17,848 nt of DNA, from UHGV virus genome UHGV-0189394. One strand, written 5' to 3'. Below the pieces are notes generated by a model. It had not been told where the DNA came from. It did no database searches and saw only the letters and a program-made list of their open reading frames with translations. This stretch comes from a virus. Position numbers and translations under genes: made by a program. Shown in pieces: positions 1,784 to 17,848 of this stretch (position 1 is its first letter; the number at the start of each line of letters is the position of its first letter).

Positions 1784-2254
1784 ATGCTGAAACTGAATTC
1801 ATTCCGCGATGCGTTAACAGCACATTGCCGGTGGTGTAAAGCCAGTCCGGAAAAATTCACGGTATTCATTGAATCCGGCGGCATTGAAACCACCGGAGAA
1901 TCCCCCTCATTCCTGTACCGCTACAATCTGGTGTTGTTCGTCATGGACTTCACCGAAAGCATCGACAACATCATGCTGCCGGTCATGGCGTGGCTGTACA
2001 GGAATCAGCCGGATCTTCTTCTCAATCCGGAGAAAAACAAAAGCATCAAATTTTCGACGGCCATCAACGATGATGACAGCGCTGACATTCTTCTGGAAAT
2101 CCCGGTATGGGAGCGCGTGATTGTACGCCGCAACGATGACGGCACGGTGAGCGCGGAGCATATCGGTGAGCCACCGGTAAGCCGGGCACTGGAAGCGTGG
2201 CGCGTGGTGTTTGAAGACATGACCTGGAAAACCGCAGAAGAGGCCGGTGCATGA
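1784..2254 (+). CDS. R: tail completion protein, P2 gpR-like
   Basis: 156-aa ORF directly upstream of the S-like and V genes; size and sequence character (e.g. MLPVMAWLYRNQPDLLLNPE) match my recollection of the P2 gpR family. Stop overlaps the next start (ATGA). Confidence 0.7.
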   Translation: MLKLNSFRDALTAHCRWCKASPEKFTVFIESGGIETTGESPSFLYRYNLVLFVMDFTESIDNIMLPVMAWLYRNQPDLLLNPEKNKSIKFSTAINDDDSADILLEIPVWERVIVRRNDDGTVSAEHIGEPPVSRALEAWRVVFEDMTWKTAEEAGA

Positions 2255-2886
2255 GAGACGTTCACGAACTGGATGCCATCTTTCAGGACATTCTTTCAGG
2301 CCTGTCAGCTGCCGGAATTCAGCGCACGGCAATGAGCGTGGGTAAGGCCATCCGGCAGGTACAGACAAAACGCATCAGAAGCCAGGTATCCCCGGACGGT
2401 CAGCCCTGGGAGAAACGAAAACGCCGGATACTGCGCATACAAAAAGGCGTGAAGTTCATCTGGAAAGACGGACAGGTAAGAAACCTGAAAAACTGGAGCA
2501 CATCCCGGGGACGGTTCGGGCGGAAAATTACCGGCTACGATACCGACGCCGGGGGTATCCGGACGTTTTACAAGGCAGATATCGAAGACTATCTGGAAAT
2601 TAACACGCAGCGCGTCGCAGCAAGAGCATCACGTCGCTCACCCATGTTCGAAAAACTGAGAACACCGCGCTTTCTGAAAATCACCCCCGACCCGAGCGGC
2701 GTCAGTGTCGGTTTTCAGGGGCGGGCCGCGCGCATTGCCAGAGTGCACCAGTTCGGTGAGGTGAGCCTTGTCTCGCCCGGAAACGCCACGAAATACCCCG
2801 TGCGCGAACTGCTGGGCCTGAACGCTAAAGACAAACAGCAAATCACGGAAACTGTGATTGCCGGACTGGGGAAAGCTGCGAAATGA
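2251..2886 (+). CDS. S: virion morphogenesis / tail completion protein, P2 gpS-like (extended, 211 aa)
   Basis: Contains QVSPDGQPWEKRK, VHQFGE and VRELLGLNAKD blocks resembling gpS-family motifs; about 60 aa longer than P2 gpS as I recall it. Translationally coupled to R and V. Confidence 0.7.
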   Translation: MRDVHELDAIFQDILSGLSAAGIQRTAMSVGKAIRQVQTKRIRSQVSPDGQPWEKRKRRILRIQKGVKFIWKDGQVRNLKNWSTSRGRFGRKITGYDTDAGGIRTFYKADIEDYLEINTQRVAARASRRSPMFEKLRTPRFLKITPDPSGVSVGFQGRAARIARVHQFGEVSLVSPGNATKYPVRELLGLNAKDKQQITETVIAGLGKAAK

Positions 2887-3464
2887 ACATTGAGCTTATG
2901 CGATTGCTGGAAAACATTGTGCGGATTGGTGTGGTCACGGAAATCAACACCGACACCTGGGAGGTTCGGGTGCAGAGTGGCGGACTGACCACCAACTGGA
3001 TCAGATGGAACAGCGGACGGGCCGGAAAATTCAGAATCTGGATCCCGCCATCACCGGGTGAGCAGGTGCTTCTCCTTTGCCCCGGTGGCAATCCGGAAAC
3101 CGCCGTCAGCGCGGGCAGTCTGTACAGTAATGACAATCCACCACCGGGCGCACTGGAAAACGAAATGGTCATCACCGCACCGGACGGTGCGGAATTTCGC
3201 TATAACGCACAGGAAGGCGACCTGACGGCAAAAGGTATCAAAACCGCAACCATTACGGCCAGAACCAGCATCACGCTGGACACGCCAAGGGTGGAATGCA
3301 CGCAGCACCTGAAGGCAAAAACATTCGAGCTGACCGAAGGCGGGAAGATGACCGGCAACATCACGCACACCGGCGGAAGCCTGACCTCCAACGGTATCAC
3401 GGTGCACAGCCACGTACACGGCGGAGTCAGAAGCGGCGGAGACACAAGCGGAGGTCCACAGTGA
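2883..3464 (+). CDS. V: baseplate assembly protein V (central spike)
   Basis: 193-aa product with GEQVLLLCPGGNPETAV, TLDTPRVECT and THTGGSLTSNGITVHSHVH blocks closely resembling P2 gpV; position directly before W. Confidence 0.9.
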   Translation: MNIELMRLLENIVRIGVVTEINTDTWEVRVQSGGLTTNWIRWNSGRAGKFRIWIPPSPGEQVLLLCPGGNPETAVSAGSLYSNDNPPPGALENEMVITAPDGAEFRYNAQEGDLTAKGIKTATITARTSITLDTPRVECTQHLKAKTFELTEGGKMTGNITHTGGSLTSNGITVHSHVHGGVRSGGDTSGGPQ

Positions 3465-3829
3465 GCATTGACTACACCGGCATGAATCCGCACGGCACGG
3501 GAACCATTTCAGGGCACGAACACCTGAAGAACGCCATCAGGGACATCATCATGACACCTGTCGGAACACGCGTCATGAGACGGGACTATGGCAGCCTGGT
3601 TCCCGGACTCATCGACAGCCCGATGAATGATGTAACCCGCCTTCAGTGCATGAGTGCAGCCGTAATAGCAATCAGCCGCTGGGAGCCGCGCGTGGCCGTG
3701 AGCGCCGTTGATGTGGCGTGGGATAAGCAGGGGCGGGCCATGCTGTCCCTGAACTGCCTGATTGTAAACACCATGGAAAAACTGGAGTTTTCTGTAGAGA
3801 TGGGAGGAAAGGCAGATGCCGGCCATTGA
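3461..3829 (+). CDS. W: baseplate wedge protein W (gp25-like)
   Basis: Frame is open from GTG 3461, which overlaps the V stop (GTGA); an alternative ATG lies at 3482. Product has the TPVGTRVMRRDYGSL block characteristic of gpW/gp25-like proteins. Confidence 0.8.
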   Translation: MSIDYTGMNPHGTGTISGHEHLKNAIRDIIMTPVGTRVMRRDYGSLVPGLIDSPMNDVTRLQCMSAAVIAISRWEPRVAVSAVDVAWDKQGRAMLSLNCLIVNTMEKLEFSVEMGGKADAGH

Positions 3830-4712
3830 TTTATCTGAACTGCCAAAACCGAACGTTATCGAAACGCTGGATTACGAGGTGATACTGGCAGAAACAAAGG
3901 CATTTATCGTCAGCCTTTACCCGGCAGAGATACAGGAAGCCGTCACTGCCGCAATGATGCTGGAATCGGAACCCCTGAACATCATTGCCCAGAGCATGGC
4001 TTTCCGTGAGCTTATTATCCGTCAGAGAATTAACGACGCTGCGGGTGCCATTCTGCTGAGCCATGCGGTATCCACAGACCTGGATCATGTTGCCGCGAAC
4101 CTGAACACCGCTCGCCTGGTCATCACACCGGCAACAGAGACCAGTGATGCCGTTATGGAGAGCGACACCGCCCTGCGTCTTCGGGCGCAGTCTGCCTTTG
4201 ACGGGCTAAGTGTCGCCGGTCCAACAGGCGCATATGAATATTTTGCCCGAAGCGTCAGTGGCAGCATTGCCGACGTGAGGGCAACAAGCCCATCCCCAGC
4301 CCAGGTCACCGTGGCGGTATTATCCACAGAAGGCGACGGTACCGCTTCCGAAGACCTGATCGAAAAGGTCAGAACCGCACTGAGTGCGGAGGACGTCAGA
4401 CCAGTGGGAGACAGGCTTACCGTAAAGAGCGCTGAAATCATCAGCTATCAGATCGACGCCAGACTCTACTTTTATCCGGGCCCGGAATCCGAGCCCATTC
4501 TGAATGCAGCCAAAAGCAACCTGGAAGCGTGGATCAGAGAGCAGAGAAAAATTGGTCGCGATGTTGCGCTTTCCGCCATCATGGCCGTCCTGCATGTGCA
4601 GGGCGTTCAGCGGGTGGAGCTGGTGAAGCCACAACAGAACATTACCGTGAGCGATACGCAGTCGGCATATTGCACTTCATTCACCGTCAGCACCGGGGGA
4701 ACCAATGAATAA
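3816..4712 (+). CDS. J: baseplate assembly protein J
   Basis: 298-aa ORF, size and position match P2 gpJ (~302 aa); overlaps W by 14 nt and I by 8 nt. Confidence 0.85.
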   Translation: MPAIDLSELPKPNVIETLDYEVILAETKAFIVSLYPAEIQEAVTAAMMLESEPLNIIAQSMAFRELIIRQRINDAAGAILLSHAVSTDLDHVAANLNTARLVITPATETSDAVMESDTALRLRAQSAFDGLSVAGPTGAYEYFARSVSGSIADVRATSPSPAQVTVAVLSTEGDGTASEDLIEKVRTALSAEDVRPVGDRLTVKSAEIISYQIDARLYFYPGPESEPILNAAKSNLEAWIREQRKIGRDVALSAIMAVLHVQGVQRVELVKPQQNITVSDTQSAYCTSFTVSTGGTNE

Positions 4713-5238
4713 AGACACTCTGCTTCCCCCTTCCGCCACAGAATTCATACGCAACGCAGAGCGTGGCAGTGAGCGGTTGATGGCGCTGCCCGTCGGTATT
4801 CGTCATCTCTGGGATCCTGACACATGTCCCGTGCAGTTGCTGCCTTATCTGGCATGGGCGCTGTCGGTTGACCGATGGGATCAAAACTGGCCGGAGGAAA
4901 CCAAACGGCAGGTCATTCGCGATTCATGGGATATTCACCGGCATAAAGGCACCATCAAAGCCATTCGCCGGGTTGTTGAGCCATTTGGTTATGTGATCAG
5001 GGTAACCGAATGGTGGGAAACCAACGAAACACCGGGAACATTCCGGCTGGATATCGGCGTACTGGATATCGGGATCACCGAAGAAATGTACAGGGAAGTT
5101 GAACGCCTGGTAGCCGACGCACGTCCGGTCAGTCGCCATCTGATCGGTCTGAACATCATTCAGGACGTACCGGGTTACATGTACACAGGCGGCATCGCCT
5201 ACGACGGCGACATTATTACTGTTTATCCTTCGGAGTAG
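4705..5238 (+). CDS. I: tail/baseplate protein I
   Basis: 177-aa ORF between J and the tail-fibre gene, matching P2 gpI size (~176 aa) and position. Confidence 0.85.
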
Positions 5239-5242
5239 CGCT

Positions 5243-8164
5243 ATGACCGTAAAATTCAAAACCGTAATCACTAAGGACGGTGCAGCAAAAATCGCCGCAG
5301 CAACCGGCACACCGGGAACAAAAATCAACATCACGCACATGGCCGTTGGCGATGGCGACGGCAACTTACCCACGCCTTCATCATCCCAGAAAGCGCTCAT
5401 TCGTGAGGTATGGCGAGGCACACCAAACAAAGTAAGCCCCAACCCCAAAAACCCTGCTGAACTCATTGCTGAACTGGTGATCCCTCCTGAAGCGGGAGGA
5501 TTCTGGATGCGTGAAATGGGCTTGTTCGATGAGGCGGGAACGCTGATTGCCGTATCCAACATGGCAGAAACCTACAAACCGCTACTGTCTGAAGGTTCCG
5601 GCAGGGCGATGACATGCCGCATGGTCCTCATCATCAGCGATGTGAGTGCCGTAAACATCTCCGTTGACAACACCACCATCATGGCAACACAGGATTACGT
5701 CGATGACAAAATCGCTGAACATGAACAGTCGCGCCGACATCCCGACGCCACACTGACCCAGAAAGGCTTCACCCAACTGGACAGCTCGGTAAACAGTAGC
5801 AGTGAGGCGAAAGCTGCAACACCAAAAGCAGTAAAAACACTGAACGATACAAAGGCCCCGCTGAACAGCCCTAAGCTGACCGGAACACCGACTGCCCCCA
5901 CGGCAGCAAAAGGGGTCAACAACACCCAGATAGCGACAACCGCTTACGTGATGGCAGCAATCGCTAATTTAGTGGACTCATCACCGGACGCCCTGAATAC
6001 GCTGAACGAGCTGGCGCAGGCGCTGGGAGATGACCCAAACTTTTCAGCCACCATGACCAACGCACTGGCGGGAAAACAGCCCCTTGATGCAACGCTGACG
6101 GCGATTGCCGCGCTGACCACGGCAGCCGATAAACTGCCTTACTTCACCGGAAACGACAAGGCGGCACTGGCAACACTGACGGAAGTTGGCCGGGACATCC
6201 TCGGAAAGGCAGCCGTCAGTGACGTCATCGCGTATCTGGGGCTCACGAACACCATCACCCAGGCATCAGGCGCACTTCAGAAAGCGCAGAACGGAAAAGA
6301 CATCCCGGACACCGAAGCGTTCCTGGAGAACGTCGGCGTCACCAGTCAGACGTTCATGAAACATAATGGAGAACTGCCTGAAGAGGCTGACCTGAATACC
6401 TATGGCCCGGTTGCTGCCACTCTGGGCACGTGGGGGAAAGCAACGTCAACCAATGCAACGATCGCTAAAAATTTCCCGGAAGACGGTGCGGTGGGCTTTC
6501 TCGAAGTCTTTACTGGAGGAGCTTTTAACGGAACGCAGCGATACACCTGCCGTAACGGTGGAATTTATATCCGGACCCTGACCGCCAGATGGAACGGAAA
6601 AGATGGCCCATGGAGCGCATGGCGTAACGTTCAGATGACCAGCAGAACCCTGAGTCAGGATATTGATCTTGACACCCTGGGGGGAACCGAACATCTGGGG
6701 GTATGGCGTAACGCAGGCGCAGCCAATGCTTCATTCACCAGAAACTACCCGGAAGAAGGTAGTTATGCCCAGGGCGTTCTTGAGGTTATGGAAGGTGGCA
6801 GCTATTCACGCACCCAGCGGTACACTACAGCCAAAGGGAATATGTACATCCGCAGCCTGGCTGCAACATGGGATGCATCTGCCCCGAAGTGGGGAGAATG
6901 GAATAGCGTCGGACATCAACCTGACGGCGCATGGCACGATGGCGACCTGAACACCATGAAAACGCCGGGTATTTACAGCACGACCAACAAGGCCAAAAAC
7001 GGCCCTATGACGGTTACGGACGGGGATAACCTGACAGGGGTCCTTGAGGTCATAAAACGACTGAGTGGTACCGCCTTTATACAGCGCTATACCACCACAG
7101 GAACGGCGACATTAACACGCGGACGTTCTTTTGAAAGAACCTTCAGCGGTGAAGCCTGGACAGAATGGCGGGAAATCTATAACTCGTTCAGCCTGCCGCA
7201 GAATCTGGGCATCGGTGGCGCAGTGGCAAAACTATCCAGTCTGGACTGGCAGACCTACGACTTTGTGCCGGGCAGTCTGATAACCGTGCGGCTTGATAAC
7301 ATGACCAACATTCCCGACGGTATGGACTGGGGCGTCATTGATGGCAACCTGATAAACATCGCGGTTGGTCCGAGTGATGATTCCGGTACGGGGCGCTCAA
7401 TGCATGTATGGCGCAGCACTGTGAGTAAAGCGAATTACCGCTTTTTTATGGTGCGTATTTCAGGAAATCCGGGAAGCCGCACGATCACAACAAGACGAGT
7501 ACCAATCATTGACGAAGCCCAGACATGGGGCGCGAAACAGACATTCAGTGCTGGCCTTTCAGGTGAATTATCCGGCAACGCCTCCACTGCAACAAAATTA
7601 AAAACCGGGCGTAAGATTAACGGCGTCACGTTTGATGGCACCGCCAATATAGAGGCATTCCCTCCGGGGGTTCCCTTACCATGGCCATCAGACACCCCGC
7701 CTTCAGGCTATGCCATTATGCAGGGGCAAACCTTCGACAAGGCAAAATACCCGAAACTTGCCATCGCCTACCCGTCAGGAAAACTGCCTGATATGCGGGG
7801 ATGGACAATCAAAGGGAAACCAGCCAGCGGTCGGGCGGTATTATCACAGGAGCAGGACGGTATTAAATCGCATACCCATACGGCCAGCGTATCAAATACC
7901 GATCTGGGGTCGAAAACGACCAGTTCATCAGGCTCAGGATCAGGCACCGCATCAGTAATACAGGGGACAGCATCCCCTGAAGGTAGCGGAGACTGGACGG
8001 CGTACGGTCCAGGAAGTGGGTCAACAATTACTGTAACTATGCCCAGTCACACCCACACCGTGGCACTGGGCTCACACGGGCACGGCGTGACCGTTAACGC
8101 CACAGGCAACACAGAAAACACCGTGAAAAATATTGCGTTTAACTACATCGTGAGGCTTGCATAA
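5243..8164 (+). CDS. H: tail fibre protein (mosaic: P2 gpH-like N-terminus, repeat-containing shaft, lambda Stf / Mu S-like receptor-binding tip)
   Basis: 973-aa ORF with GGAG 8 nt upstream. N-terminal ~150 aa is P2 H-like; C-terminus has GWTIKGK...HTHTA...[16 protein letters not shown]...[12 protein letters not shown], resembling the conserved tip of lambda Stf-type side tail fibres. Confidence 0.9.
6388..7183 (+). repeat. three tandem protein-level repeats (~85-90 aa each) inside the tail-fibre gene
   Basis: Units begin near nt 6388 (DLNTYGP...[29 protein letters not shown]...W..W), 6659 (DIDLDTLGG...[29 protein letters not shown]...W..W) and 6939 ([11 protein letters not shown]...GVLEVIKRL...QRYTTTG...W..W). 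Nucleotide sequences have diverged; unit boundaries are approximate. Confidence 0.6.
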
Positions 8165-8910
8165 TGACCTTTACAATGAAAGACGAAGCCAGAACGCTAC
8201 GGGTATTTCATATTCACCCGGAAACCAGCGAACTGACCGGCGAAAGCGACGTATATATTCCACCGCATACCGGGCTGCCCGCTGGTTGCACAACTACCGA
8301 ACCGCCACATATCCCGGAAGGGTTCGCGGCACTTTTTGATGAGGTTCGCCAGCGCTGGGAACTCGCCGAAGATCACCGGGGGAAAGTGGTGTGGGAGACA
8401 ACATCCGGGAATGAAATCACAATAACTGAAATCGGACCGCTGCCTGAAAACACAACAACCGTGGCCCCGCCAACAGCCGCAGGAAAGTTTATTGATGGCG
8501 AATGGAAAGAAGATCGCAGTCTGGCAATCAGTATAAAAAATAACGAGATAAACGAATGGCGTAACGCCATGGAATCTGCAAATTACGTTTTCACGTTCAA
8601 TGGCCGCAACTGGGATTACGGAAAAGAAACCCAGTCCCGACTGGAACCATCAGTGGCAGCCGCAAAGTCCGGGTTATTACCGGAGGGATTTTTCTGGACG
8701 GATGCCGATAACAACGATATCCCGGTTACCGCAGATGAATTGATCGCACTGAGCAATGCTGCATCTGCTGCAATGTTTACCAAAGGAATGGAAATACATA
8801 TCCGGCAACGGGAAATGAAAAAAGCCATAGAGGAATTACAGGACCCCGGAGAAATCATGGCATACCCGGTGGGATGGAAAACAGACACCGCAGAAGGTGA
8901 CGACGAGTGA
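8164..8910 (+). CDS. tfa: tail fibre assembly protein / chaperone (lambda Tfa-like N-terminal domain, non-canonical C-terminal domain)
   Basis: Start overlaps the H stop (TAATGA). N-terminal ~100 aa (GESDVYIPPHTGLPAG, EDHRGKVVWETTSGNEITITEIGPLPEN) closely resembles lambda Tfa; the C-terminal ~140 aa does not resemble the usual Tfa C-terminus as I recall it. Confidence 0.75.
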   Translation: MTFTMKDEARTLRVFHIHPETSELTGESDVYIPPHTGLPAGCTTTEPPHIPEGFAALFDEVRQRWELAEDHRGKVVWETTSGNEITITEIGPLPENTTTVAPPTAAGKFIDGEWKEDRSLAISIKNNEINEWRNAMESANYVFTFNGRNWDYGKETQSRLEPSVAAAKSGLLPEGFFWTDADNNDIPVTADELIALSNAASAAMFTKGMEIHIRQREMKKAIEELQDPGEIMAYPVGWKTDTAEGDDE

Positions 8911-8915
8911 AAGTT

Positions 8916-8942
8916 AAAACGCCCGACTGACGGGCGTTTTTA
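8916..8942. terminator. bidirectional rho-independent terminator between convergent tfa and U
   Basis: aaaa-ACGCCCG-actga-CGGGCGT-ttttt: GC-rich 7-bp stem flanked by an A tract on one side and a T tract on the other, lying between the tfa stop (8910) and the U stop (8943). Confidence 0.8.
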
Positions 8943-9416
8943 TTATCTTACCAGTGTCAGTGCAGAGCTGACGCCGGACTTGATATTATTTGTCAGATCC
9001 CCCAGAGATGAAGACTGAAGGCGCTCACGCAAATCTTCATTCACACGCTCAAAGGTCACCGTAAACTCAATCTTCCGGGCCTTGCCATAGCGATCAAGCT
9101 CTGAGCGCGTGGTATTCAGCGCGGTGATAACGTACATACCGTAAATCTGACCAACACCATCAATCAGCGGCCAGGGACGCCCCGCATACGCCTGAGTTGT
9201 CAGCGCCGTGAGCGAGACTTCACCGCCTGTTATTTCCGGGTAGAGAAGACCGGAAAGCGTGATGGTATCGTCCCCCGCACCGATATACTGCCAGCTTGCC
9301 GAGCGGTTGATCCGCTCGTTCTTCACATGACGCCAGTTACGGGACTGCTGTATCTGCTGGTGTGGCAGCGTGCTTAACTGAAAAACAAACATGCCGTAAA
9401 TCATCATCATAACCAT
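8943..9416 (-). CDS. U: tail protein U
   Basis: Product (..MMMIYGMFVFQLSTLPHQQ...WPLIDGVGQIYGMYVI...KIEFTVTFERV) resembles P2 gpU. The track ORF starts at GTG 9419; I place the start at ATG 9416, but ATGs at 9410-9404 are equally possible (AGGAG lies just upstream). Confidence 0.8.
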   Translation of the reverse strand: MVMMMIYGMFVFQLSTLPHQQIQQSRNWRHVKNERINRSASWQYIGAGDDTITLSGLLYPEITGGEVSLTALTTQAYAGRPWPLIDGVGQIYGMYVITALNTTRSELDRYGKARKIEFTVTFERVNEDLRERLQSSSLGDLTNNIKSGVSSALTLVR

Positions 9417-9421
9417 CACTC

Positions 9422-12307
9422 CTAATCACGATCGCGGAAGCTGTTCATACCGCCGACTTGTCTGCGAATTTCTTCCCGTACCGCCTCCCCCACCATTCTG
9501 GCAAGGTCGCGCGGATTCTGCGTAACCACGTTATGAAGGTGAACGTGAATTTCCCCATCAAACACAGGCGACGGCGCAGGAGCAGATGCACGCGATGCAG
9601 CACCCGATGATGGAGAAACCGGTGCCCACTGCTTAACCTCCACAGGACGGGAAGTATCCGGGGAAACAACCGGAGACACGGGTGAAAGCGCTGGCACAGG
9701 CGGAAGTACGGGGGCAACAGTCGGTTCATTCCACTGCCCACGAACGGCCAGCGCGCGGGGGAGATTTTTAAACACGATATCGCCGGGGCCGATACGCTTA
9801 CGGGCTTCCTGAAGCATACCCGACGTATTGCCTTCGATACCCTTGAGCCTGCGAAGAACGCCACTGGTACCGTCATTTATTCCCGGAGGATTACCACCTT
9901 TGGGATCCACGCCCCCCGTATTACCGCCAGCCACCGGTTTGCCCTTCCCTGCGTTATCACTGGTGGCAGATTCAGCCATACTGGGGGACCATGCCTTCTG
10001 AACCATTTTTTTCTGAACAGGGTCCCACTCCCACATAACCGGAGCCTTTGCAACTGCCTCAGCACGATTTTTCGCCCGCTCAACTTCAGAGGGGAGCACG
10101 CCGAGTTTTTCCAGCACCCATGCCAGGCCGTCCATCAGAGCCTGAAGAGGAGTAAGCGCAAGCGATATCGCCCCGCTGAGCACGCGACCAAAAGTTTCCC
10201 CGGCCGATGTACACCGTTCAAGAGATTCATTACTGGCCTGAACCGGCGTGAGCAACCGGGTAAACCAGTCGAACACCGTGGACACCGCACCCGATACCAG
10301 ATCAAACAGCGGCGCAAACTGAGCAATACTTTCACGAACAGGCGCAAGGCCAGCCCACAGCGCCCGGAATGTGCCGAGCATGAAGGCCTTAACCTGTTCC
10401 CAGTGACGCCATATGAGCAGCGCCCCACCGGCAAGGGCAGCAATCACGAGACCAACAGGACTGAGAAGACCGGCAAGCGCCCCGCCCAGCACCGAAAACG
10501 CACCGGATACCATCCCCCACAGTGCCGGAAGTCCGGACAGGCGAAGGACAAGACCACTGACGCCGGTTGCAACGGAGGAAAGTCCGCCACCAAGAAGCGC
10601 AGAGCCAAGCTGAAGTTTTGCAAAAACCCCCGTCAGCAATCCACCACCGACAGACAGCGCGCCTATGGCCGTTGTGGCCGCAAGCACGCCCCCCACGGTA
10701 AGGGTCAGTGTGCGTACAAGCTGTGGGTTTTCCTGAATCCACGACCTGAAACGTTCGCCCACAGAAGCAACAGCCTGTACAAGCTCGCGGATATCATCAG
10801 TAACCAGCGACACAACATCACTGCGTATACCGGAGAAGACGCCAGACAGACGATCGGCATCACCGCCGAGGTTATCCCGCAGGACATCCCCCATTCGCCG
10901 GGCGGTTCCCTGAACCTGTCCCATACGGTCTGATACCGTTGCCAGCGAGCGGAGAAAATCCGGGATCTGGTCAACGGCAAGATCTTCAATGGGTGTGCCG
11001 AACAGCGCTATCGCCGCATTAGCCCGTTCTGCCGGATCCTGAATCTTCAGCAGCCCGGCAGCCGTTCGCTGCATTGCCTCGCGTGCAGCTGCGCCTCCGC
11101 TGGCAATCGCTGACGACATTCTTTCAGCGTTAAGGCCAATCAGCTCATAGGCCTCAACGCTTGCTTTGGACATATCCGAGCCGCGAATACTGAATTCCTT
11201 GACGGCATCGCCGGTTTTATCCAGGGCGAATTTTCCCTGCTGTGCCATGCTGACAAGCAGCGTCATGGTTTCAGAGCCGGAAAGCCCCATATTGCGGAAG
11301 TGCGTGGAATACTCATGCAGAATTTCAGGAAGTTCAGCGCGCATTTCGGCAGACATTTTCTGCATCCCTGCCGCCATCAGGTCGACCGCCTCCCCGGCAT
11401 TTGCGGCAAGCCCGTTTTTCAGCATGATTCCGGCAGCCTGAACCTGTTCAGCCACACTACCGCCGGTGACCTGAGCAAGATCCAGCGCCTGACGTGTCAC
11501 CCGTTCGAGCTCTTCAGTCCCCACCGTACCCAGTGCGCCAAGCGTGCTTTGCGTCGCAGCTGCCGCCTCTGAAATCATTGCGATATCCGTTGCGACACCT
11601 GACGCCCGGATATTCTGAATCATCCGGCTGTAGCGCTGCCCGTCCTCCGCACTGCCGCCACTCTGTGCCGCAATAAGCGCGCCCTGCCGTTGCTCTTCAA
11701 CAACAGGCGCAACCGCATGTCCGGCGGCGTACAGACCAGCACTGCCCGCCGCCATGGCAACCGCTCCGCGCTGGCTGAGTTTACCGGCGATATCCTGAAC
11801 ACGATCGTAACGTTGCTGTGCCTGCGTGACGCGCGCAAGCTGAGCCTGCTGGCGTTCAAGCTGATCGTTGTATTCCTGCGTTCGCCTGATTGCTTCCTCC
11901 ACAGCGCGGTTACTTCCGTCAGCCCGTATGCCGTGAGCTTCCAGTTCGCGACCGGCCTCCCGTAATCGGGACTGGTGAAGGGAGTACACAGTATTAAGGC
12001 GCTCAACCTTTGCGGTCAGCGCCCTGAGAGTTTCCTGCTGCTTTTCCGTCAGTGCTGTGCCGGTGCGCTGTGCTTCCTGAAGGCGCTGAAGTCGCGCACG
12101 CGCATCATTCAGACTGTTTTCAGTCGAAGCGACCTGCTGACGGGCACGGGAAAACGCATCACTGCTTCGCTGGAGTGACTTAAGCGCGTTCTGTGTGGAC
12201 GAAAGGGATTCAGAAAGCGCGCCGGTCATTTCCCGGGCGCGCCTGACAGGTTGGGTGAGACGGTCGACCGCAGTGAGGGCTACACGTATCTGGAGATTAT
12301 TACTCAT
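9422..12307 (-). CDS. T: tail tape measure protein T
   Basis: Long ORF between E/E' and U with an Ala/Gly-rich hydrophobic central region typical of tape measure proteins. Start placed at ATG 12307-12305 (MSNNLQ...), which overlaps the E' stop; the track's GTG at 12361 would lie inside E'. Confidence 0.85.
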   Translation of the reverse strand: MSNNLQIRVALTAVDRLTQPVRRAREMTGALSESLSSTQNALKSLQRSSDAFSRARQQVASTENSLNDARARLQRLQEAQRTGTALTEKQQETLRALTAKVERLNTVYSLHQSRLREAGRELEAHGIRADGSNRAVEEAIRRTQEYNDQLERQQAQLARVTQAQQRYDRVQDIAGKLSQRGAVAMAAGSAGLYAAGHAVAPVVEEQRQGALIAAQSGGSAEDGQRYSRMIQNIRASGVATDIAMISEAAAATQSTLGALGTVGTEELERVTRQALDLAQVTGGSVAEQVQAAGIMLKNGLAANAGEAVDLMAAGMQKMSAEMRAELPEILHEYSTHFRNMGLSGSETMTLLVSMAQQGKFALDKTGDAVKEFSIRGSDMSKASVEAYELIGLNAERMSSAIASGGAAAREAMQRTAAGLLKIQDPAERANAAIALFGTPIEDLAVDQIPDFLRSLATVSDRMGQVQGTARRMGDVLRDNLGGDADRLSGVFSGIRSDVVSLVTDDIRELVQAVASVGERFRSWIQENPQLVRTLTLTVGGVLAATTAIGALSVGGGLLTGVFAKLQLGSALLGGGLSSVATGVSGLVLRLSGLPALWGMVSGAFSVLGGALAGLLSPVGLVIAALAGGALLIWRHWEQVKAFMLGTFRALWAGLAPVRESIAQFAPLFDLVSGAVSTVFDWFTRLLTPVQASNESLERCTSAGETFGRVLSGAISLALTPLQALMDGLAWVLEKLGVLPSEVERAKNRAEAVAKAPVMWEWDPVQKKMVQKAWSPSMAESATSDNAGKGKPVAGGNTGGVDPKGGNPPGINDGTSGVLRRLKGIEGNTSGMLQEARKRIGPGDIVFKNLPRALAVRGQWNEPTVAPVLPPVPALSPVSPVVSPDTSRPVEVKQWAPVSPSSGAASRASAPAPSPVFDGEIHVHLHNVVTQNPRDLARMVGEAVREEIRRQVGGMNSFRDRD

Positions 12308-12847
12308 CGTTATGATTCCCGGTTCTGGCAGCCGCCCGCTCTCGCCAGGCAACAACCTCACCAGGACTCATACCGAATATCTCTGCGGGCGACCAGTTAA
12401 AGACAACAGCGATATCAGCGACAAGCTCTTCGATATCGTCAAACAGGAGACGAATTACATCACACCTGTATTCGTCTTTTTCTTGCCGGGCAAGGCCTTC
12501 GGCGAGAAAAAATACGTTGCCGCCGTGGAAAGCGCCCCGAAATCCTCCGTGCGCATGGTCGACAGTTCCGCTTCAGTAAGGCGGGGCTCTGTAACACGAG
12601 CGAGATAAACGCACATCGCGTTAAAGTTCAGGCTGTACAGGTGAGCCAGAGACAGACCACGCAGCGAACCACTCTGACGGGCACGCTCGCCAATCTTCAC
12701 ATGTGTAATAATCTGTTCGCCACGGATGACCGGGTTTGTTAATTCAATGAGCTCACCGTTATAGGCAACCTCATTACCATCAGCAGCATCGAAGTCGTCG
12801 ACGTTATCAGCACCGACAACCGGCATTTCGTTTTGTTTTTTTGACAT
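12300..12847 (-). CDS. tail assembly chaperone E+E' (predicted -1 programmed frameshift product)
   Basis: Slippery heptamer T TTT TTC on the - strand (12512-12506) at codons 112-114 of E. Hand translation of the -1 frame from 12506 gives a 68-codon extension (LAEGLARQEKDEYRCDVIRLLFDDIEELVADIAVVFNWSPAEIFGMSPGEVVAWRERAAARTGNHNDE) ending TAA 12302-12300, overlapping the T start. Confidence 0.6.
12455..12847 (-). CDS. E: tail assembly chaperone E
   Basis: 130-aa ORF with AGGAG 9 nt upstream of ATG 12847; sits between FII and T as in P2 and contains a slippery run near its 3' end. Confidence 0.8.
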   Translation of the reverse strand: MSKKQNEMPVVGADNVDDFDAADGNEVAYNGELIELTNPVIRGEQIITHVKIGERARQSGSLRGLSLAHLYSLNFNAMCVYLARVTEPRLTEAELSTMRTEDFGALSTAATYFFSPKALPGKKKTNTGVM

Positions 12848-12892
12848 TGTGAAATTCTCCTGGCGGCCACACGACCGCCGTCAGTCAGTTAA

Positions 12893-13405
12893 TCAGCCAA
12901 GCCCCAGCATGGAGCGGGTGCGGTCAGGCAACACATCCTTGCCATCAACGCGCCAGATGAAGTTCAGCACGTCGATTTCAATAACATCGCTGTTATCAAC
13001 GCTGAGCTTGTACCAGGTGCATTTCATCGCGTAGGTATGTTCGGTATCCTCACCCTGTTTGGCTTCGCCCTTGTCGATTTCGACAATGCGCCCACGGGCT
13101 TCAATATCGACGTACTCAATACCCTCTTCGGAATAGTATTCACCCGAGAAGCGCACACGTACCGCATCAATGCCTGCGGCATATTTGGCAAAGATGTGAC
13201 GGTCCACGCCGCCAACCGCAAAGGAGAGATCCAGCGCACCGTCATCAAGCCCGAGATCCACCGCCGCAGAGCCTGGCATACCCGCACCGCGATACGCTTC
13301 AGTCTTGCGGGTCAGCTTGGGCGGAGTGAAGGAGGTCACCTTACCCAGCTTGTTGTCACCGTCCACAAAGACGGTAAACACACGAAGTTTTTTTGGCACG
13401 GCCAT
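12893..13405 (-). CDS. FII: tail tube protein FII
   Basis: 170-aa ORF (P2 FII ~172 aa); its start overlaps the FI stop (TGATG). Confidence 0.9.
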   Translation of the reverse strand: MAVPKKLRVFTVFVDGDNKLGKVTSFTPPKLTRKTEAYRGAGMPGSAAVDLGLDDGALDLSFAVGGVDRHIFAKYAAGIDAVRVRFSGEYYSEEGIEYVDIEARGRIVEIDKGEAKQGEDTEHTYAMKCTWYKLSVDNSDVIEIDVLNFIWRVDGKDVLPDRTRSMLGLG

Positions 13406-14610
13406 CAGTTACCCCCTCCCAGAGATGCAAAAGCAGAACTGAAGAACTCGTCAGTAAACGTCTGATAGAGTTCCATGCACTCCATAGGCGGAACAGGGGT
13501 GTATTTGTAGCGAATACGCACAATACCCTGACGAAGGCTGGTTGTGTCGTTGTCGATGATATCGAACCAGCATTCCGCCCCGATAAGTTTTCCGGCCGTG
13601 ACCAGCGCATCCAGTTTTGCCTTGATAGCGCTTACCGCATCCTTCGCGTTGGCTGGCGTCAACGGTGAATCCACCACCTGAAGCTGTGCCTCTGCGATAC
13701 CGTCAGCCAGTTGTTGCGCCGTACGGGTGTACACCTCAAAGATATACTCCGCCGTTTCCGGCGTACGGTTCCCCCAGAAACGGAAGGAGCCGTCACCCTG
13801 GTGAATAATCGTCGTCACCTCACTGCTGTTCAGCGTGTTGGCATCGCTGTTTTCATCCTGAAGCGACCAGGAAACCGACGCAGAGATCCCGAGAACATTC
13901 TTCACAGGGATGTTTGAAAGAGAGCGATGCCAGCCCTGTTCGTGGTCGATTCGGGCACGAAGACCGCACGCATACGCCGCAGCCGGGAAAGTTTCGCTTT
14001 TACCGGATGCAGGGTTGAACGCCGTGAAATCAGGCCACAGAAGCATGATTTCACGCCCGGAAATCTTTTTGCGGAATGCAATGGCATCGGACGGTTTTGT
14101 ACATGCCGGGCAGCCGGAATACGCAAAAGCGCGCATTTTGCCCGCAATCGTCACCAGTGCCGCCGTAACGGCCTCGGACTCAAGACCGGGTGCCGCCAGG
14201 ATACGCGGACGACAGCCAATCCCTTCCATCTGTTCAGCAACCAGAAGAGCCTGCATCCCCGTGTAACTGCCATCAGCCTCCACGGTACCAATAACAAGCT
14301 GGTCCTGATTCTTCCCTCCCTCGGTGTCTTCCTCCTCTTTGGCTTCAGCGACACGCACGACGATAACGCGCGTGCTGACCTGATCGGAGATAGCCTTAAG
14401 AGATTTGTAGAGCGTCCCCTTTGTGCCAGCCTTACCCAGAACATTATTGACTCGTGTTAACAGCACCGGCGTGTCAAGCGGGAACTGCTCTTCATCAGCA
14501 TCATCTGCAACAGCAATAATCCCAATGACACTGGAATCAACGTCATTAATTGCCGTCACCAGATCGGTGTTTTCCCTGACGCGCACACCGTGAAATCGCG
14601 TTTCAGCCAT
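13405..14610 (-). CDS. FI: contractile tail sheath protein FI
   Basis: ~400-aa ORF resembling P2 gpFI. Start placed at ATG 14610 (MAETRFHGVRV..., GGTGA 5 nt upstream) rather than the track's ATG 14622, which has no RBS. Confidence 0.9.
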   Translation of the reverse strand: MAETRFHGVRVRENTDLVTAINDVDSSVIGIIAVADDADEEQFPLDTPVLLTRVNNVLGKAGTKGTLYKSLKAISDQVSTRVIVVRVAEAKEEEDTEGGKNQDQLVIGTVEADGSYTGMQALLVAEQMEGIGCRPRILAAPGLESEAVTAALVTIAGKMRAFAYSGCPACTKPSDAIAFRKKISGREIMLLWPDFTAFNPASGKSETFPAAAYACGLRARIDHEQGWHRSLSNIPVKNVLGISASVSWSLQDENSDANTLNSSEVTTIIHQGDGSFRFWGNRTPETAEYIFEVYTRTAQQLADGIAEAQLQVVDSPLTPANAKDAVSAIKAKLDALVTAGKLIGAECWFDIIDNDTTSLRQGIVRIRYKYTPVPPMECMELYQTFTDEFFSSAFASLGGGN

Positions 14611-14685
14611 ACGATTCACCATCAGTTATGTTTAAGCTCGCCTGAATAATCCACTACTGGCGCGCAGCCTTCACGTGATGCGGGT

Positions 14686-14763: not shown

Positions 14764-15909
14764 ATGAGTATCACTGAATCAGTAACACATCACATCAACA
14801 GCGCACTGGATGCAGCGGAAGACACAGTGAGGGTACCGGACTTCACTATCACACTGGAAGGAAAAGATGCCAGCCTGAAGAACATCACGCAGCGCATCAT
14901 GAGCCTCACCATGACAGACAACAGGGGTTTTGAGGCTGACAGGGTGACGCTGGAAATCGACGACGCCGACGGCGAGGTGGTACTTCCGGAACGTGGAACA
15001 AGATTATCTCTGTCTCTGGGATGGAAAGGTGAAAGCCTCACACACAAAGGGACGTTCGTTGTGGATGAAGTCGCGCACGACGGGCCACCGGATAAGCTGA
15101 CCATCTCCGCGAACAGCGCGGATTTTCGCGAAGAGTTTAACGTAAAACGCGAAGTCTCATGGCATGACGTGACCGTTGAGCGTGTGGTGTCTGCCATCGC
15201 CCACCGTTACGGACTGAAAGCCCAAATCAGCGAAATGTTGATGAACATCGAAATCGACCATGCCGACCAGACAGAGGAAAGTGATATGTCATTCCTAACG
15301 CGCATGGCTGACATGCTGGGTGCAATAGCCACCGTAAAAAACGGGTGCCTGCTGTTCATTCTGCCGGGTGGTGGTGTGACGGCCAGCGGTCACGCCCTCC
15401 CCTCTTTCTCCCTGACCCGTTCGGATGGCGACAGCCACCGGTTCCGCATTGCTGACAGACAGGCCTACACCGGGGTGAAGGCTTACTGGCTGGATTTAAA
15501 GTTCGGTCAGAAGAAGGCCGTGAACGTGAAAAAGCGAAACGCGCAAACCACGCAGAAGCCGGAGAAAAGCAGTTCACGGGAGGGCGGATACATGGAAGGC
15601 GCAGAAGGCAACGTGTATGTGCTGAGAAGAACCTACCCGAACGAAGAGGCCGCGCGTCGCGCAGCTGCCGCACGCTGGCAGCAACTTCAGCGGGGCGCAG
15701 CGGAATTCAGCATCACGCTGGCGCGCGGACGCGCCGACCTGTATCCGGAGATGCACGGCACGGTATCCGGGTTCAAGAGCGACATTGACAATCAGGACTG
15801 GATTATTTCGCGCATTGAACACGTCATCGACGACAGCGGCTTCACCACCAGACTGGAGCTGGAAGCAAAAATCGCAGACTGGATAGCAGAGAGTAACACG
15901 ACTGGCTAG
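14764..15909 (+). CDS. D: tail protein D (late control gene D family; gp27/VgrG-like baseplate hub)
   Basis: 381-aa ORF (P2 gpD ~387 aa) with a strong RBS, immediately upstream of ogr as in P2. Confidence 0.85.
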   Translation: MSITESVTHHINSALDAAEDTVRVPDFTITLEGKDASLKNITQRIMSLTMTDNRGFEADRVTLEIDDADGEVVLPERGTRLSLSLGWKGESLTHKGTFVVDEVAHDGPPDKLTISANSADFREEFNVKREVSWHDVTVERVVSAIAHRYGLKAQISEMLMNIEIDHADQTEESDMSFLTRMADMLGAIATVKNGCLLFILPGGGVTASGHALPSFSLTRSDGDSHRFRIADRQAYTGVKAYWLDLKFGQKKAVNVKKRNAQTTQKPEKSSSREGGYMEGAEGNVYVLRRTYPNEEAARRAAAARWQQLQRGAAEFSITLARGRADLYPEMHGTVSGFKSDIDNQDWIISRIEHVIDDSGFTTRLELEAKIADWIAESNTTG

Positions 15910-15950
15910 AATGAGCGCGAGCCCACCCCGTTTCAGCCAGGGGGACCATC

Positions 15951-16253
15951 ATGCATCCTTGCCCATACTGCGGAGCAAGCACCCGCACCAGAACAAGCCG
16001 CAACGCCAACGACACAGGAACAATCAGGGAGAAATACTATCAGTGCAACAACATTGAATGCAGCGCAACCTTTGTGACTCACGAGTTTGTCGTGAGAACC
16101 GTATGCCGTCCGCAACCCACCGAAGAACGGGGAATTATTCCCGCAGACGCCTTCAAAGCATGTCACCGGGGGAGGGATCAACTCAGCCTTCCCCTGGGCG
16201 ATTGCGCCTCCCAGTCAAAAACTGTACATTACGCGCGGGTGCCTTTCGGCTGA
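15951..16253 (+). CDS. ogr: Ogr/Delta-family zinc-finger late transcription activator
   Basis: N-terminus MHPCPYCGASTRTRTSRNANDTGTIREKYYQCNNIECSATF has the C-x2-C...C-x4-C arrangement and surrounding residues of P2 Ogr; GGGGGA RBS upstream. The 100-aa ORF is longer than P2 Ogr (72 aa). Confidence 0.8.
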   Translation: MHPCPYCGASTRTRTSRNANDTGTIREKYYQCNNIECSATFVTHEFVVRTVCRPQPTEERGIIPADAFKACHRGRDQLSLPLGDCASQSKTVHYARVPFG

Positions 16254-16382
16254 CGGCTGGAAGGATTACCTGAAGGCCGGATGTGGAAAGGCCCCGAGTC
16301 AACTAAACGTTAACCCGAGGCCCTAACCATCTACCATAAGCAAGTGATAGGTTAGCGCCTCTCCAACAAAGGAGCAAGCGCT

Positions 16383-16523
16383 ATGTCGCAAAAATCGCTT
16401 ATGGCCATCACGTTCTGCGTGACGGCAATCCTCATCATCTGGATGTTACATGGTTCGCTGTGTGAAATACGGATGAACATATGGGGAGCGGAGTTTGCGG
16501 CGTTCCTACAGTGTAAACAGTAA
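16383..16523 (+). CDS. Hok/Gef-family type I toxin-like small membrane protein (46 aa)
   Basis: ATG 16383 with AGGAG 9 nt upstream, stop TAA 16521-16523. Product MSQKSLMAITFCVTAILIIWMLHGSLCEIRMNIWGAEFAAFLQCKQ has one TM helix followed by SLCEIR and a later AAF block, matching the Hok family signature as I recall it (R1 Hok ...SLCEIR...VAAFMAYE). Confidence 0.55.
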   Translation: MSQKSLMAITFCVTAILIIWMLHGSLCEIRMNIWGAEFAAFLQCKQ

Positions 16524-16616
16524 GGAAACCGCGACGGGGGAGTAATCCCCCGTCAATCGGTTGCCAGGGTAAAGCCGAAAGTAGCACCCTCACACGCAAG
16601 TCACAAAGAAAAACAA

Positions 16617-16647
16617 AGCCCGCAGCGTAAAAACTGCGGGCTTTTTT
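16617..16647 (+). terminator. rho-independent terminator
   Basis: AGCCCGCAG-cgtaaaaa-CTGCGGGCT followed by TTTTTT, ~95 nt downstream of the hok-like ORF. Confidence 0.75.
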
Positions 16648-16852
16648 GTATTCACATTTCGAAGATGTGGTCACTGCGTGGACACAGAGCGATGAAAATC
16701 CTTTCAAATCACAATGTTAACTAATTTTTTTCATTCATCAACAAGGATTTTCACGTTTGTGTTACCTGTATGAGACGAGAGTTAACCGGACAAGTGTGCC
16801 ATAATCTCGCGGCCAGGCATACTTGCGAAGATTTCAGGTATAAGGATACGTA

Positions 16853-17848
16853 ATGATACAACCTATTTCCGGCCCTCCTCCTGGGCAACCACCAGGTCAG
16901 GGAGATAACCTGCCGTCTGGCGCGGGCAATCAGCCTTTATCCAGTCAGCAACGTACTTCGCTGGAAAGCTTAATGACGAAAGTGACCTCACTGACGCAAC
17001 AACAAAGAGCAGAACTGTGGGCGGGTATCAGGCACGATATTGGTCTGTCGGGAGATTCACCGCTGCTTTCGCGTCACTTCCCTGCCGCTGAGCATAATCT
17101 GGCGCAACGTCTGCTGGCCGCGCAAAAAAGCCATTCTGCCCGCCAGCTTTTAGCGCAATTAGGGGAGTATTTACGTCTGGGGAATAATCGTCAGGCGGTC
17201 ACGGATTATATCCGTCATAACTTTGGTCAGACGCCGCTGAATCAGCTCTCACCGGAGCAATTAAAAACCATTCTCACCCTGTTGCAGGAAGGGAAGATGG
17301 TTATTCCGCAACCACAGCAGCGCGAGGCGACCGACCGTCCTTTATTACCGGCGGAGCACAATGCGCTAAAACAGCTGGTGACCAAACTTGCGGCGGCAAC
17401 GGGGGAACCCAGCAAACAGATCTGGCAATCGATGCTGGAACTTTCCGGGGTGAAAGATGGCGAGTTAATTCCAGCGAAACTGTTTAACCATCTGGTGACC
17501 TGGTTGCAGGCGCGCCAGACGTTAAGCCAGCAAAATACGCCGACGCTGGAATCACTACAGATGGCGCTAAAACAACCTTTAGATGCCAGTGAACTGGCGG
17601 CGTTATCGGCATATATCCAGCAAAAATATGGCCTTTCTGCGCAATCATCGCTTTCTTCTGCCCAGGCCGAGGATATTCTTAATCAGCTTTATCAACGGCG
17701 GGTTAAAGGGATTGATCCGCGTGATATGCAACCGCTGCTTAATCCTTTTCCACCGATGATGGACACGTTGCAAAATATGGCAACGCGTCCCGCGCTGTGG
17801 ATACTGTTAGTCGCGATTATCCTGATGCTGGTCTGGCTGGTTCGTTAG
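16853..17848 (+). CDS. flk: flagellar regulator Flk-like protein (host chromosomal gene)
   Basis: 331-aa ORF with TAAGGA RBS; Pro/Gln-rich N-terminus (MIQPISGPPPGQPPGQ...) and a single C-terminal transmembrane anchor (ALWILLVAIILMLVWLVR), matching enterobacterial Flk as I recall it. Complete gene, stop TAG 17846-17848. Confidence 0.7.
   Translation: MIQPISGPPPGQPPGQGDNLPSGAGNQPLSSQQRTSLESLMTKVTSLTQQQRAELWAGIRHDIGLSGDSPLLSRHFPAAEHNLAQRLLAAQKSHSARQLLAQLGEYLRLGNNRQAVTDYIRHNFGQTPLNQLSPEQLKTILTLLQEGKMVIPQPQQREATDRPLLPAEHNALKQLVTKLAAATGEPSKQIWQSMLELSGVKDGELIPAKLFNHLVTWLQARQTLSQQNTPTLESLQMALKQPLDASELAALSAYIQQKYGLSAQSSLSSAQAEDILNQLYQRRVKGIDPRDMQPLLNPFPPMMDTLQNMATRPALWILLVAIILMLVWLVR

Follow-up and report, generated by a model that had tools for sequence, protein, structure and literature searches.

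A closely related, already described system is gene E of the FETUD tail operon in phage P2, where a TTTTTTG site without a stimulatory hairpin serves a 91-aa E and a 142-aa E+E' (PMC3091744). The P2 record (NC_001895 19430..19857) characterizes E+E' as “-1 frameshift; shares amino terminus with gpE” and as “essential tail protein”. The E+E' frameshift site is conserved in the Burkholderia P2-like phages KS5, KS14 and KL3, for which no downstream hairpin was predicted (PMC3091744). In lambda, a low-level -1 shift yields G and GT, which have a common N terminus, are needed in a critical ratio and are both absent from the virion; the tape measure protein is bound by G and GT alike, the major tail protein is bound by the extension, and the ratio is fixed and low (PMC5009743).

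The region considered here is 12847..12300 (minus strand) of a viral genome, UHGV-0189394; the window is the whole analysed stretch of 17,848 nucleotides. We believe that this region is, with high probability, an E/E+E' recoding cassette with -1 ribosomal slippage in a P2-family E. coli prophage (Peduoviridae, Xuanwuvirus/P88-like, host E. coli). It represents the well-known P2-like programmed -1 frameshift, in which one start codon serves two chaperones; it is real but ordinary, and the only feature peculiar to this locus is a heptamer that ends in C rather than G.

Layout of the E, E' and T region

The contractile-tail module has the order FI, FII, E, T, U (Pfam and NCBIfam), with E between the tube and the tape measure genes and with all of these genes, the heptamer and E' on the minus strand. 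The coordinates are collected in the table.

Features of the tail module around the putative recoding site
Feature	Position	Strand	Description
Gene FI, tail sheath	13405..14622	-	first gene of the operon; Pfam Phage_sheath_1 and related domains
Gene FII, tail tube	12893..13405	-	directly upstream of E; Pfam Phage_tube, E 3.1e-49; TIGR01611
Shine-Dalgarno AGGAGA	12856..12861	-	8 nt 5' of the E start codon; read from the sequence
Gene E, tail assembly chaperone	12455..12847	-	zero-frame product, 130 aa, 14.2 kDa; ORF and translation
Slippery heptamer T_TTT_TTC	12506..12512	-	X_XXY_YYZ phase of E; codons Tyr112-Phe113-Phe114
E/E' overlap zone	12455..12505	-	16 zero-frame codons and stop, readable in the -1 frame too
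E', -1 frame extension	12300..12506	-	68 sense codons and TAA 12302..12300
Conserved GpE domain PF06528	12315..12422	-	residues 143-178 of predicted E+E'; entirely within the 147-nt “intergenic” gap
Gene T, tape measure protein	9422..12307	-	961 aa from ATG 12307; Pfam PhageMin_Tail, TIGR01760
Gene U, tail protein	8943..9419	-	downstream of T; Pfam Phage_P2_GpU, E 6.2e-41

Gene E starts at ATG 12847 and stops at TAA 12457..12455. The initial annotation proposed a heptamer T TTT TTC located 17 codons before this stop, and it is indeed found there, its TTC being codon 114 of 131. The same source described a -1 frame open for 68 codons and ending just past the start codon of T. Counted from C 12506, the frame contains exactly 68 sense codons (LAEGLARQEK...TGNHNDE), and its stop covers codons 2-3 of T (ATG 12307..12305), which makes the E'/T overlap 8 nt long. 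The predicted E+E' has 182 aa (20.3 kDa) and the junction ...TAATYFF-LAEGLAR.... The peptide quoted earlier as conserved-looking, DIAVVFNWSPAEIFGMSPGEVVAWRERA, is present in the -1 frame. The junction tryptic peptide of the predicted fusion is TEDFGALSTAATYFFLAEGLAR; LLFDDIEELVADIAVVFNWSPAEIFGMSPGEVVAWR is unique to the E' part, and TEDFGALSTAATYFFSPK marks E.

The distance from the E stop to the T start is exactly 147 nt, and this gap, which the initial annotation assigned to E', shows the substitution pattern of coding DNA read in the -1 frame. An alternative T start at GTG 12361 was dropped in favor of ATG 12307: the sequence ahead of 12307 is under constraint in the frame of E', the relatives are annotated from ATG, and the same ATG is used in E. 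coli SCU-172.

Homology, conservation and selection

The earlier suggestion of a tail-chaperone frameshift of the P2 E/E+E' and lambda G/GT type is supported by homology, layout and selection, from which we infer the frameshift event itself. The -1 segment matches Pfam PF06528 (Phage_P2_GpE) with 50.3 bits (cut-off 23; E 1.6e-13), the match spanning profile positions 1-36 of 37. It also matches phrog_1756 “tail protein” (E 2.5e-23) and phrog_6416, while E matches phrog_103 “tail protein” (E 6.6e-29). The alignment with P2 E', proposed initially as a check, gave a clear answer: in BLASTP the 182-aa fusion and the annotated P2 E+E' are collinear, the alignment continuing past the shift site without a break (37% identity, E 9e-32), and the N-terminal part of the fusion is aligned to residues 6-85 of P2 gpE.

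Several other searches were negative. The E part falls below the cut-off of Pfam Phage_TAC_7 (18-19 bits vs 25); no NCBIfam model is matched by E or by the fusion; and the PDB sequence search gave no relative with a solved structure. Megablast of a 700-nt region against the phage collection found no match, and the relatives came from a protein-mode search. A pattern scan of genome contigs with the E part alone returned 79 pattern matches, of which 0 were confirmed. The protein-cluster homologue search with the fusion gave two clusters only, both consisting of E-only 130-aa proteins, with 0 fused.

A lack of conservation of the -1 extension in homologues was initially named as evidence against the frameshift; the extension proved to be conserved. 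In each of the 12 annotated loci, an in-phase heptamer occupies the same column of the alignment, and a -1 ORF overlaps the T start by 8-14 nt. Among the IMG/VR relatives, the -1 layout is observed in 77 of 80, with the heptamer 15-18 codons ahead of the E stop. The heptamers are TTTTTTG (28), CCCTTTC (19), AAATTTT (16), TTTTTTA (4), TTTTTTT (1) and TTTTTTC (1). Since six different heptamers occur at this place among close relatives, it is slipperiness rather than the heptamer sequence that is conserved. Selection thus holds a slippery heptamer in place while its sequence drifts, which neatly illustrates a principle already known and not a new one.

The final base of the heptamer is C here and G in P2; among distinct relatives, TTTTTTC is found only in L013 (92% identical), in addition to the examined E. 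coli SCU-172 locus. Most relatives have an ERGGDG motif after the shift, from which the linker here, EKDEYRCD, deviates. Compared with P2, the N terminus of E is extended by an acidic stretch of 30 aa, which the P88-type relatives have as well.

Substitution patterns in relatives indicate that purifying selection acts on the -1 frame both before and after the E stop. In the E' core, the differences at codon positions 1/2/3 number 365/180/675, and the synonymous fraction is 0.47 in the -1 frame, the remaining frames having 0.09 and 0.07. The core has zero stops in the -1 frame; in the other frames, stops are present in most relatives. In the overlap zone upstream of the E stop, constraint is found in the -1 frame and none in the zero frame; for instance, the differences in one group of relatives are 46 synonymous and 21 non-synonymous when read in the -1 frame vs 6 and 60 in the zero frame. 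Between 12572 and 12372 the -1 frame contains no ATG, GTG or TTG; the first such codon is ATG 12371, inside the conserved domain.

Proposed mechanism and alternative explanations

We presume that the majority of ribosomes would read E to its stop and produce the 130-aa chaperone. In a minority, U_UUU_UUC would hold one tRNA-Phe in the P site, paired with UUU, and another in the A site, paired with UUC, and both would step back one base onto UUU_UUU; translation would restart at CUC in the -1 frame and add 68 residues, so that the 182-aa E+E' would end just within T. If P2 E/E+E' and lambda G/GT are a guide, the tape measure protein T would be bound by the E part that both products have in common, and the E' domain would recruit the tube protein. 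A fixed low E+E':E ratio would drive tail assembly, and neither protein would be kept in the virion.

As for RNA stimulators, no conserved downstream structure was found in eight relatives. The local hairpins start 2 nt or 28 nt past the heptamer, which is unsuitable spacing, or involve the heptamer itself; a downstream stimulator as a conserved feature was rejected. No upstream Shine-Dalgarno-like stimulator is evident in the 20 nt preceding the heptamer. The absence of a stimulator is no argument against membership in this family, because such structures are reported to be absent in P2 as well (PMC3091744); it does mean, however, that the efficiency is not predictable. Among tail chaperone systems of the lambda G/GT type, most lack a downstream RNA stimulator, and its presence does not define the class. 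The heptamer U_UUU_UUC lets tRNA-Phe re-pair perfectly in the P site and the A site alike, and one local hairpin pairs the U-run with a downstream GAAAAAG (MFE -36.9 kcal/mol, z -3.7). We consider it rather unlikely that this combination gives an E+E':E ratio clearly unlike that of P2; should the ratio differ, the lineage would be a natural variant for the tuning of the chaperone ratio in contractile-tail assembly.

The same ...YFF-LAEG... protein would be produced if RNA polymerase added one U in the T6 run, and a homopolymer run makes this transcriptional slippage conceivable, with a product identical under either mechanism. Furthermore, the T-run has the lengths T6, T7 and T8 in the otherwise near-identical IMG/VR loci L023, L014 and L018; therefore, it is indel-prone at some level (DNA, sequencing or polymerase). 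We nevertheless regard this explanation as improbable. The non-homopolymeric heptamers occupying the same place, C_CCT_TTC in 19 loci and A_AAT_TTT in 16, fit tandem tRNA slippage but are poor sites for the polymerase. Efficient slippage of bacterial RNA polymerase generally needs a run of about 8-9, and six T is shorter. Finally, the site in P2 is described as a translational frameshift (P2 record; PMC3091744).

E' could also be a separate small gene with its own non-canonical start (e.g., ATT 12455) or with reinitiation past the E stop, considering that public records list a CDS of 46-51 aa after E as “GpE family phage tail protein” or “tail protein”. Yet the frame offers no ATG, GTG or TTG until the middle of the conserved domain, and the PGAP CDS in SCU-172 begins with ATT. 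Purifying selection on the -1 frame is also seen ahead of the E stop, in sequence that a gene of this kind would leave untranslated, the frame is open in relatives back through the heptamer, and E+E' is a fusion according to the P2 record; we find a separate gene very hard to accept. The idea of a non-coding gap with an open frame and a heptamer arising by chance has in its favor that the single parts are not rare: 68 codons stay open in 3.5% of mononucleotide shuffles, and in-phase XXXYYYZ heptamers number 22 in 5034 codons of the window genes (about 1 per 230 codons). It has practically no chance of being correct and is already refuted by the Pfam match, the homology with P2 E' and the codon-position pattern; the PHROG matches and the conserved layout speak against it as well. 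The observation is far above chance owing to the Pfam match, the homology with P2 E+E' and the conservation in relatives. Thus, -1 ribosomal slippage is our preferred explanation.

Annotation and comparison with known systems

Public records of this prophage lineage list E as a “hypothetical protein” and give E' a CDS of its own, a 51-aa “GpE family phage tail protein” that begins at ATT. The locus is correctly described as one recoded gene with two products, E (130 aa) and E+E' (182 aa), and fixing the split annotation is the main value of the present report.

Lambda G/GT is similar in its two-product logic and in its location, with the major tail gene on one side and the tape measure gene on the other. 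The lambda heptamer is G_GGA_AAG. Lambda is, however, a siphovirus, similarity at the sequence level would not be expected, and the domain roles in P2-type contractile tails are only suggested by analogy with it. The Burkholderia phages KS5, KS14 and KL3 retain TTTTTTG, unlike the locus considered here, and both the hosts and the phages are only distantly related.

Xuanwuvirus P88 (gp47/gp46) and the related E. coli prophages SCU-172, MSB1_4I and G1/2 agree with the present locus in gene order, and their FI-U block is likewise inverted. The identity is about 45-49% for P88 and 96% at the DNA level for SCU-172 and MSB1_4I. In the P88 group, E has 121-130 aa with the N-terminal extension, and the heptamer is located 15-17 codons before the stop. 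P88 differs in having T_TTT_TTG, with A_AAT_TTT one codon upstream, and a 14-nt overlap with T; P88_4B11 has A_AAT_TTT only. The fusion is annotated in none of the records for P88, SCU-172, MSB1_4I and G1/2. The FI-U block was also considered as an invertible segment, which was rejected: it has no flanking inverted repeats, and its order is the same in phage P88.

Compared with P2, the FI-U block is on the strand opposite to D/ogr, and the heptamer is T_TTT_TTC, where that of P2 ends in G. It is 17 codons ahead of the E stop vs 7 in P2. E has 130 aa vs 91 in P2 owing to a 30-residue acidic N-terminal extension, and the linker from the shift site to GpE is longer by about 10 residues, the predicted fusion having 182 aa vs 142. 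At the same time, E/E+E' occupies the same slot as in P2, between the FII tube and the T tape measure genes. As in P2, the bases after the heptamer are TCGCCGAA, there is no obvious stimulatory structure, an in-phase T-rich heptamer lies near the end of E, and the -1 extension carries the GpE domain and overlaps T by 8 nt.

Layout of the cassette and its setting

The E/E+E' cassette and its tail-block genes are read from the minus strand. The heptamer T_TTT_TTC is in X_XXY_YYZ phase, since E codons 112-114 are TAT TTT TTC. The numbers of the initial annotation proved correct on reading the sequence: the E stop codon lies 17 codons from the last heptamer codon, the -1 frame stays open for 68 codons, and 147 nt separate the E stop from the T start. 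Read in the -1 frame from the C at 12506, the sequence is LAEGLARQEKDEYRCDVIRLLFDDIEELVADIAVVFNWSPAEIFGMSPGEVVAWRERAAARTGNHNDE; because T starts at ATG 12307, this frame ends 8 nt inside T. The predicted trans-frame protein E+E' has 182 aa. Taken one by one, these elements are not improbable by chance: 68 codons stay open in 3.5% of shuffles, and among the 5034 codons of the window's genes there are 22 in-phase XXXYYYZ heptamers. It is the comparative evidence, therefore, that carries the case.

Features of the tail block and the right end of the window
Feature	Position	Strand	Remark
U	8943-9419	minus	
Tape measure T	9422-12307	minus	
E' in -1 frame	from C 12506; stop TAA 12302..12300	minus	68 sense codons
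Slippery heptamer T_TTT_TTC	12512..12506	minus	X_XXY_YYZ phase
Gene E	ATG 12847 to TAA 12457..12455	minus	130 aa
AGGAGA ahead of E start	12861..12856	minus	
Tube FII	12893-13405	minus	
Sheath FI	13405-14622	minus	
flk	16853-17848 (ORF)		core E. coli gene, right end of the window

Judged by sequence similarity, the neighbouring genes identify a P2-family contractile-tail module, with R, S, V, W, J, I, a 973-aa tail fibre and a DUF4376 protein upstream on the plus strand, and D and an Ogr/Delta zinc-finger protein downstream on the same strand. The FI-FII-E-T-U block (8943-14622) lies on the strand opposite to the baseplate/fibre genes (1784-8910) and D/ogr (14764-16253); inverted repeats flanking the block were looked for and none was found. 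As the right end is flk, the element is an E. coli prophage, whose predicted right border is at about 16.3-16.8 kb, from flk and the sequence before it (16260-17848). In the best-matching genomes the sequence upstream of flk is annotated as Hok/Gef and Com-family genes. The tail region at about 90% identity is found in only 2 of 5426 complete E. coli genomes. A probable bidirectional terminator separates U from the convergent DUF4376 gene: at 8909-8947, the arms of a 17-nt inverted repeat enclose a 5-nt loop, and a T-run follows. Just upstream of R (45-1421, plus strand) is the gene of a 458-aa protein that combines a SASA (sialate O-acetylesterase-like) domain with DUF6645. This protein is seldom found in E. 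coli, 3 of 5426 genomes having partial matches (80-85% identity), and may be prophage cargo.

Homology to P2 and coding in the -1 frame

Residues 143-178 of E+E' match Pfam PF06528 (Phage P2 GpE) at 50.3 bits (E 1.6e-13; cut-off 23 bits), and the match is coded wholly within the "gap" in the -1 frame. Both parts hit PHROG families described as "tail protein": phrog_103 for E, phrog_1756 and phrog_6416 for the extension. The P2 record places E at 19430..19705, the E+E' join at 19685, its end at 19857 and the T start at 19850, and notes of E+E' "shares amino terminus with gpE; -1 frameshift". In BLASTP, P2 E+E' rebuilt from this record aligns with the window fusion (37% identity, E 9e-32), unbroken across the shift site (window YFF-LAE, P2 GFL-FAE), and the extension is homologous to P2 E'. 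The join at 19685 yields ...GFLFAE, while strict tandem slippage predicts ...GFLVAE.

Pairwise differences among nine distinct loci, counted over a 40-codon ungapped core of E', number 365/180/675 at -1-frame codon positions 1/2/3. Of the codons that differ, 47% are synonymous in the -1 frame versus 9% and 7% in the other two, which contain stops in most loci; the -1 frame has none. The 147-nt gap, which the initial annotation explained by the frameshift, thus codes for the GpE domain, as indicated by PF06528 and this substitution pattern. From the heptamer to the E stop both frames are open, and here too it is the -1 frame that is constrained: in the CCCTTTC group it shows 46 synonymous and 21 non-synonymous differences, the zero frame 6 and 60, and a G-x-W-x-x-ERGGDG motif is common to most lineages. 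Translation of the -1 frame therefore begins upstream of the E stop.

Slip-site conservation and alternative explanations

A tblastn search with the fusion matched 373 of 50,697 phage records; the best matches listed are split in two, as a query spanning two reading frames should give. We compared 12 annotated loci (the window, E. coli SCU-172, G1/2, EC2, P88, PhiR44_2, P88_4B11, KSP20, two Klebsiella elements, pro147 and P2). All 12 have an in-phase heptamer near the E end, a -1 ORF already open ahead of it and a -1 stop 8-14 nt into T; the shift-site Phe is an invariant column of the protein alignment. The -1 layout recurs in 77 of 80 IMG/VR relatives, so the extension is conserved in homologues. 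The last in-phase heptamer in the overlap, in the 72 loci scorable by a stricter motif scan, is TTTTTTG (28), CCCTTTC (19), AAATTTT (16), TTTTTTA (4), TTTTTTT (1) or TTTTTTC (1, a 92% relative of the window), invariably 15-18 codons from the E stop. Relatives keep the position and slipperiness of the heptamer, not its sequence, as would be expected if a ribosomal slip site is under selection.

The three loci in which no heptamer was found are accounted for by T-run length variants and indels in E or E'. Three near-identical IMG/VR loci differ only in the T-run of the slip site (CCC-T6/T7/T8-GACGCC, at about nt 1136 of each): with T6 (L023) the layout is normal, with T7 (L014) E and E' are fused in one frame, and with T8 (L018) E stops at TGA directly after the run and E' is in the +1 frame. 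Two more loci carry further indels within E or E'. These exceptions may be homopolymer sequencing errors or genuine variants. In 14 E. coli genomes, DNA similarity of about 89% begins within E' at the GpE domain (window 12431) and runs on into T; their E is a different allele (126 aa, heptamer TTTTTTG). By this sequence comparison, 12431 is a putative mosaic joint, the E' domain staying with its tape measure.

Could the -1 ORF and heptamer be a coincidence? The PF06528 match, the P2 alignment and the -1-frame substitution pattern exclude this. Independent initiation of E' is contradicted both by the constraint ahead of the E stop and by the lack of a start codon: reading the window's -1 frame from 12572, the first ATG, GTG or TTG met is ATG 12371, in the middle of the conserved domain. 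The ATT-start E' CDS annotated in SCU-172 is a work-around of annotation and no evidence of a separate gene. An identical protein would result if RNA polymerase added one U at the T6 run; however, C_CCT_TTC and A_AAT_TTT of the relatives are not polymerase slippage sites, and we consider this explanation quite improbable.

Proposed mechanism and comparison with P2

Tandem -1 slippage at T_TTT_TTC is, very probably, the best explanation. The P-site tRNA-Phe on UUU and the A-site tRNA-Phe on UUC would re-pair with UUU and UUU, and decoding would resume at CUC. Under the established simultaneous-slippage model, the C-ending heptamer lets each tRNA re-pair at every one of the three positions, G:U wobble included, which should be no less favourable than the UUG-to-UUU re-pairing in P2. 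No stimulatory element was identified in folds of the window and relatives. A 113-nt window fold has a z-score of -3.7, its first helix pairing the U-run with a downstream GAAAAAG; further hairpins start 2 and 28 nt past the heptamer. Downstream 70-nt folds of the window and seven relatives (z-scores -1.6 to +1.1) share no structure. P2 and its Burkholderia relatives are likewise reported to lack stimulatory structures (PMC3091744). By analogy with P2 and lambda (PMC5009743), E, together with the E portion of E+E', would form a coat on the tape measure, and the E' domain would bring in the tube protein; correct tail assembly would depend on a low ratio set by the frameshift.

The P2-type tail-chaperone frameshift proposed in the initial annotation is supported by PF06528, BLASTP to P2 and the slip site kept in relatives. 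By sequence, this P88/Xuanwuvirus-like prophage carries an orthologue of the P2 E/E+E' cassette; mechanistically the locus presents nothing new, and the practical outcome is a corrected annotation. In the SCU-172 prophage (96% identical), PGAP calls E a "hypothetical protein" and E' a separate 51-aa "GpE family phage tail protein" with ATT as first codon. SCU-172 (3054-3601 of its locus), P88, PhiR44_2 and pro147 all have E as "hypothetical protein" or "tail protein" plus a separate 46-51-aa GpE CDS; compared with these, ribosomal slippage is annotated only in the P2 reference record.

E' overlaps T by 8 nt in both P2 and the window. The last heptamer base is C in the window and G in P2, the heptamer lies 17 rather than 7 codons from the E stop, the window E has a 30-residue acidic N-terminal extension, and the linker exceeds that of P2 by about 10 residues. 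An SD-like AAGGTGG precedes the P2 heptamer by four bases (19669-19685; 2670-2686 of the extracted P2 locus), and the window has no comparable sequence. The gene order is collinear in P2, whereas the FI-U block is inverted in the window. P88 (Xuanwuvirus) and SCU-172 have the block arrangement of the window. Of the differences from P2 in the heptamer, its distance to the E stop, the E N-terminus and the linker, P88-type relatives share all except the C-ending heptamer.
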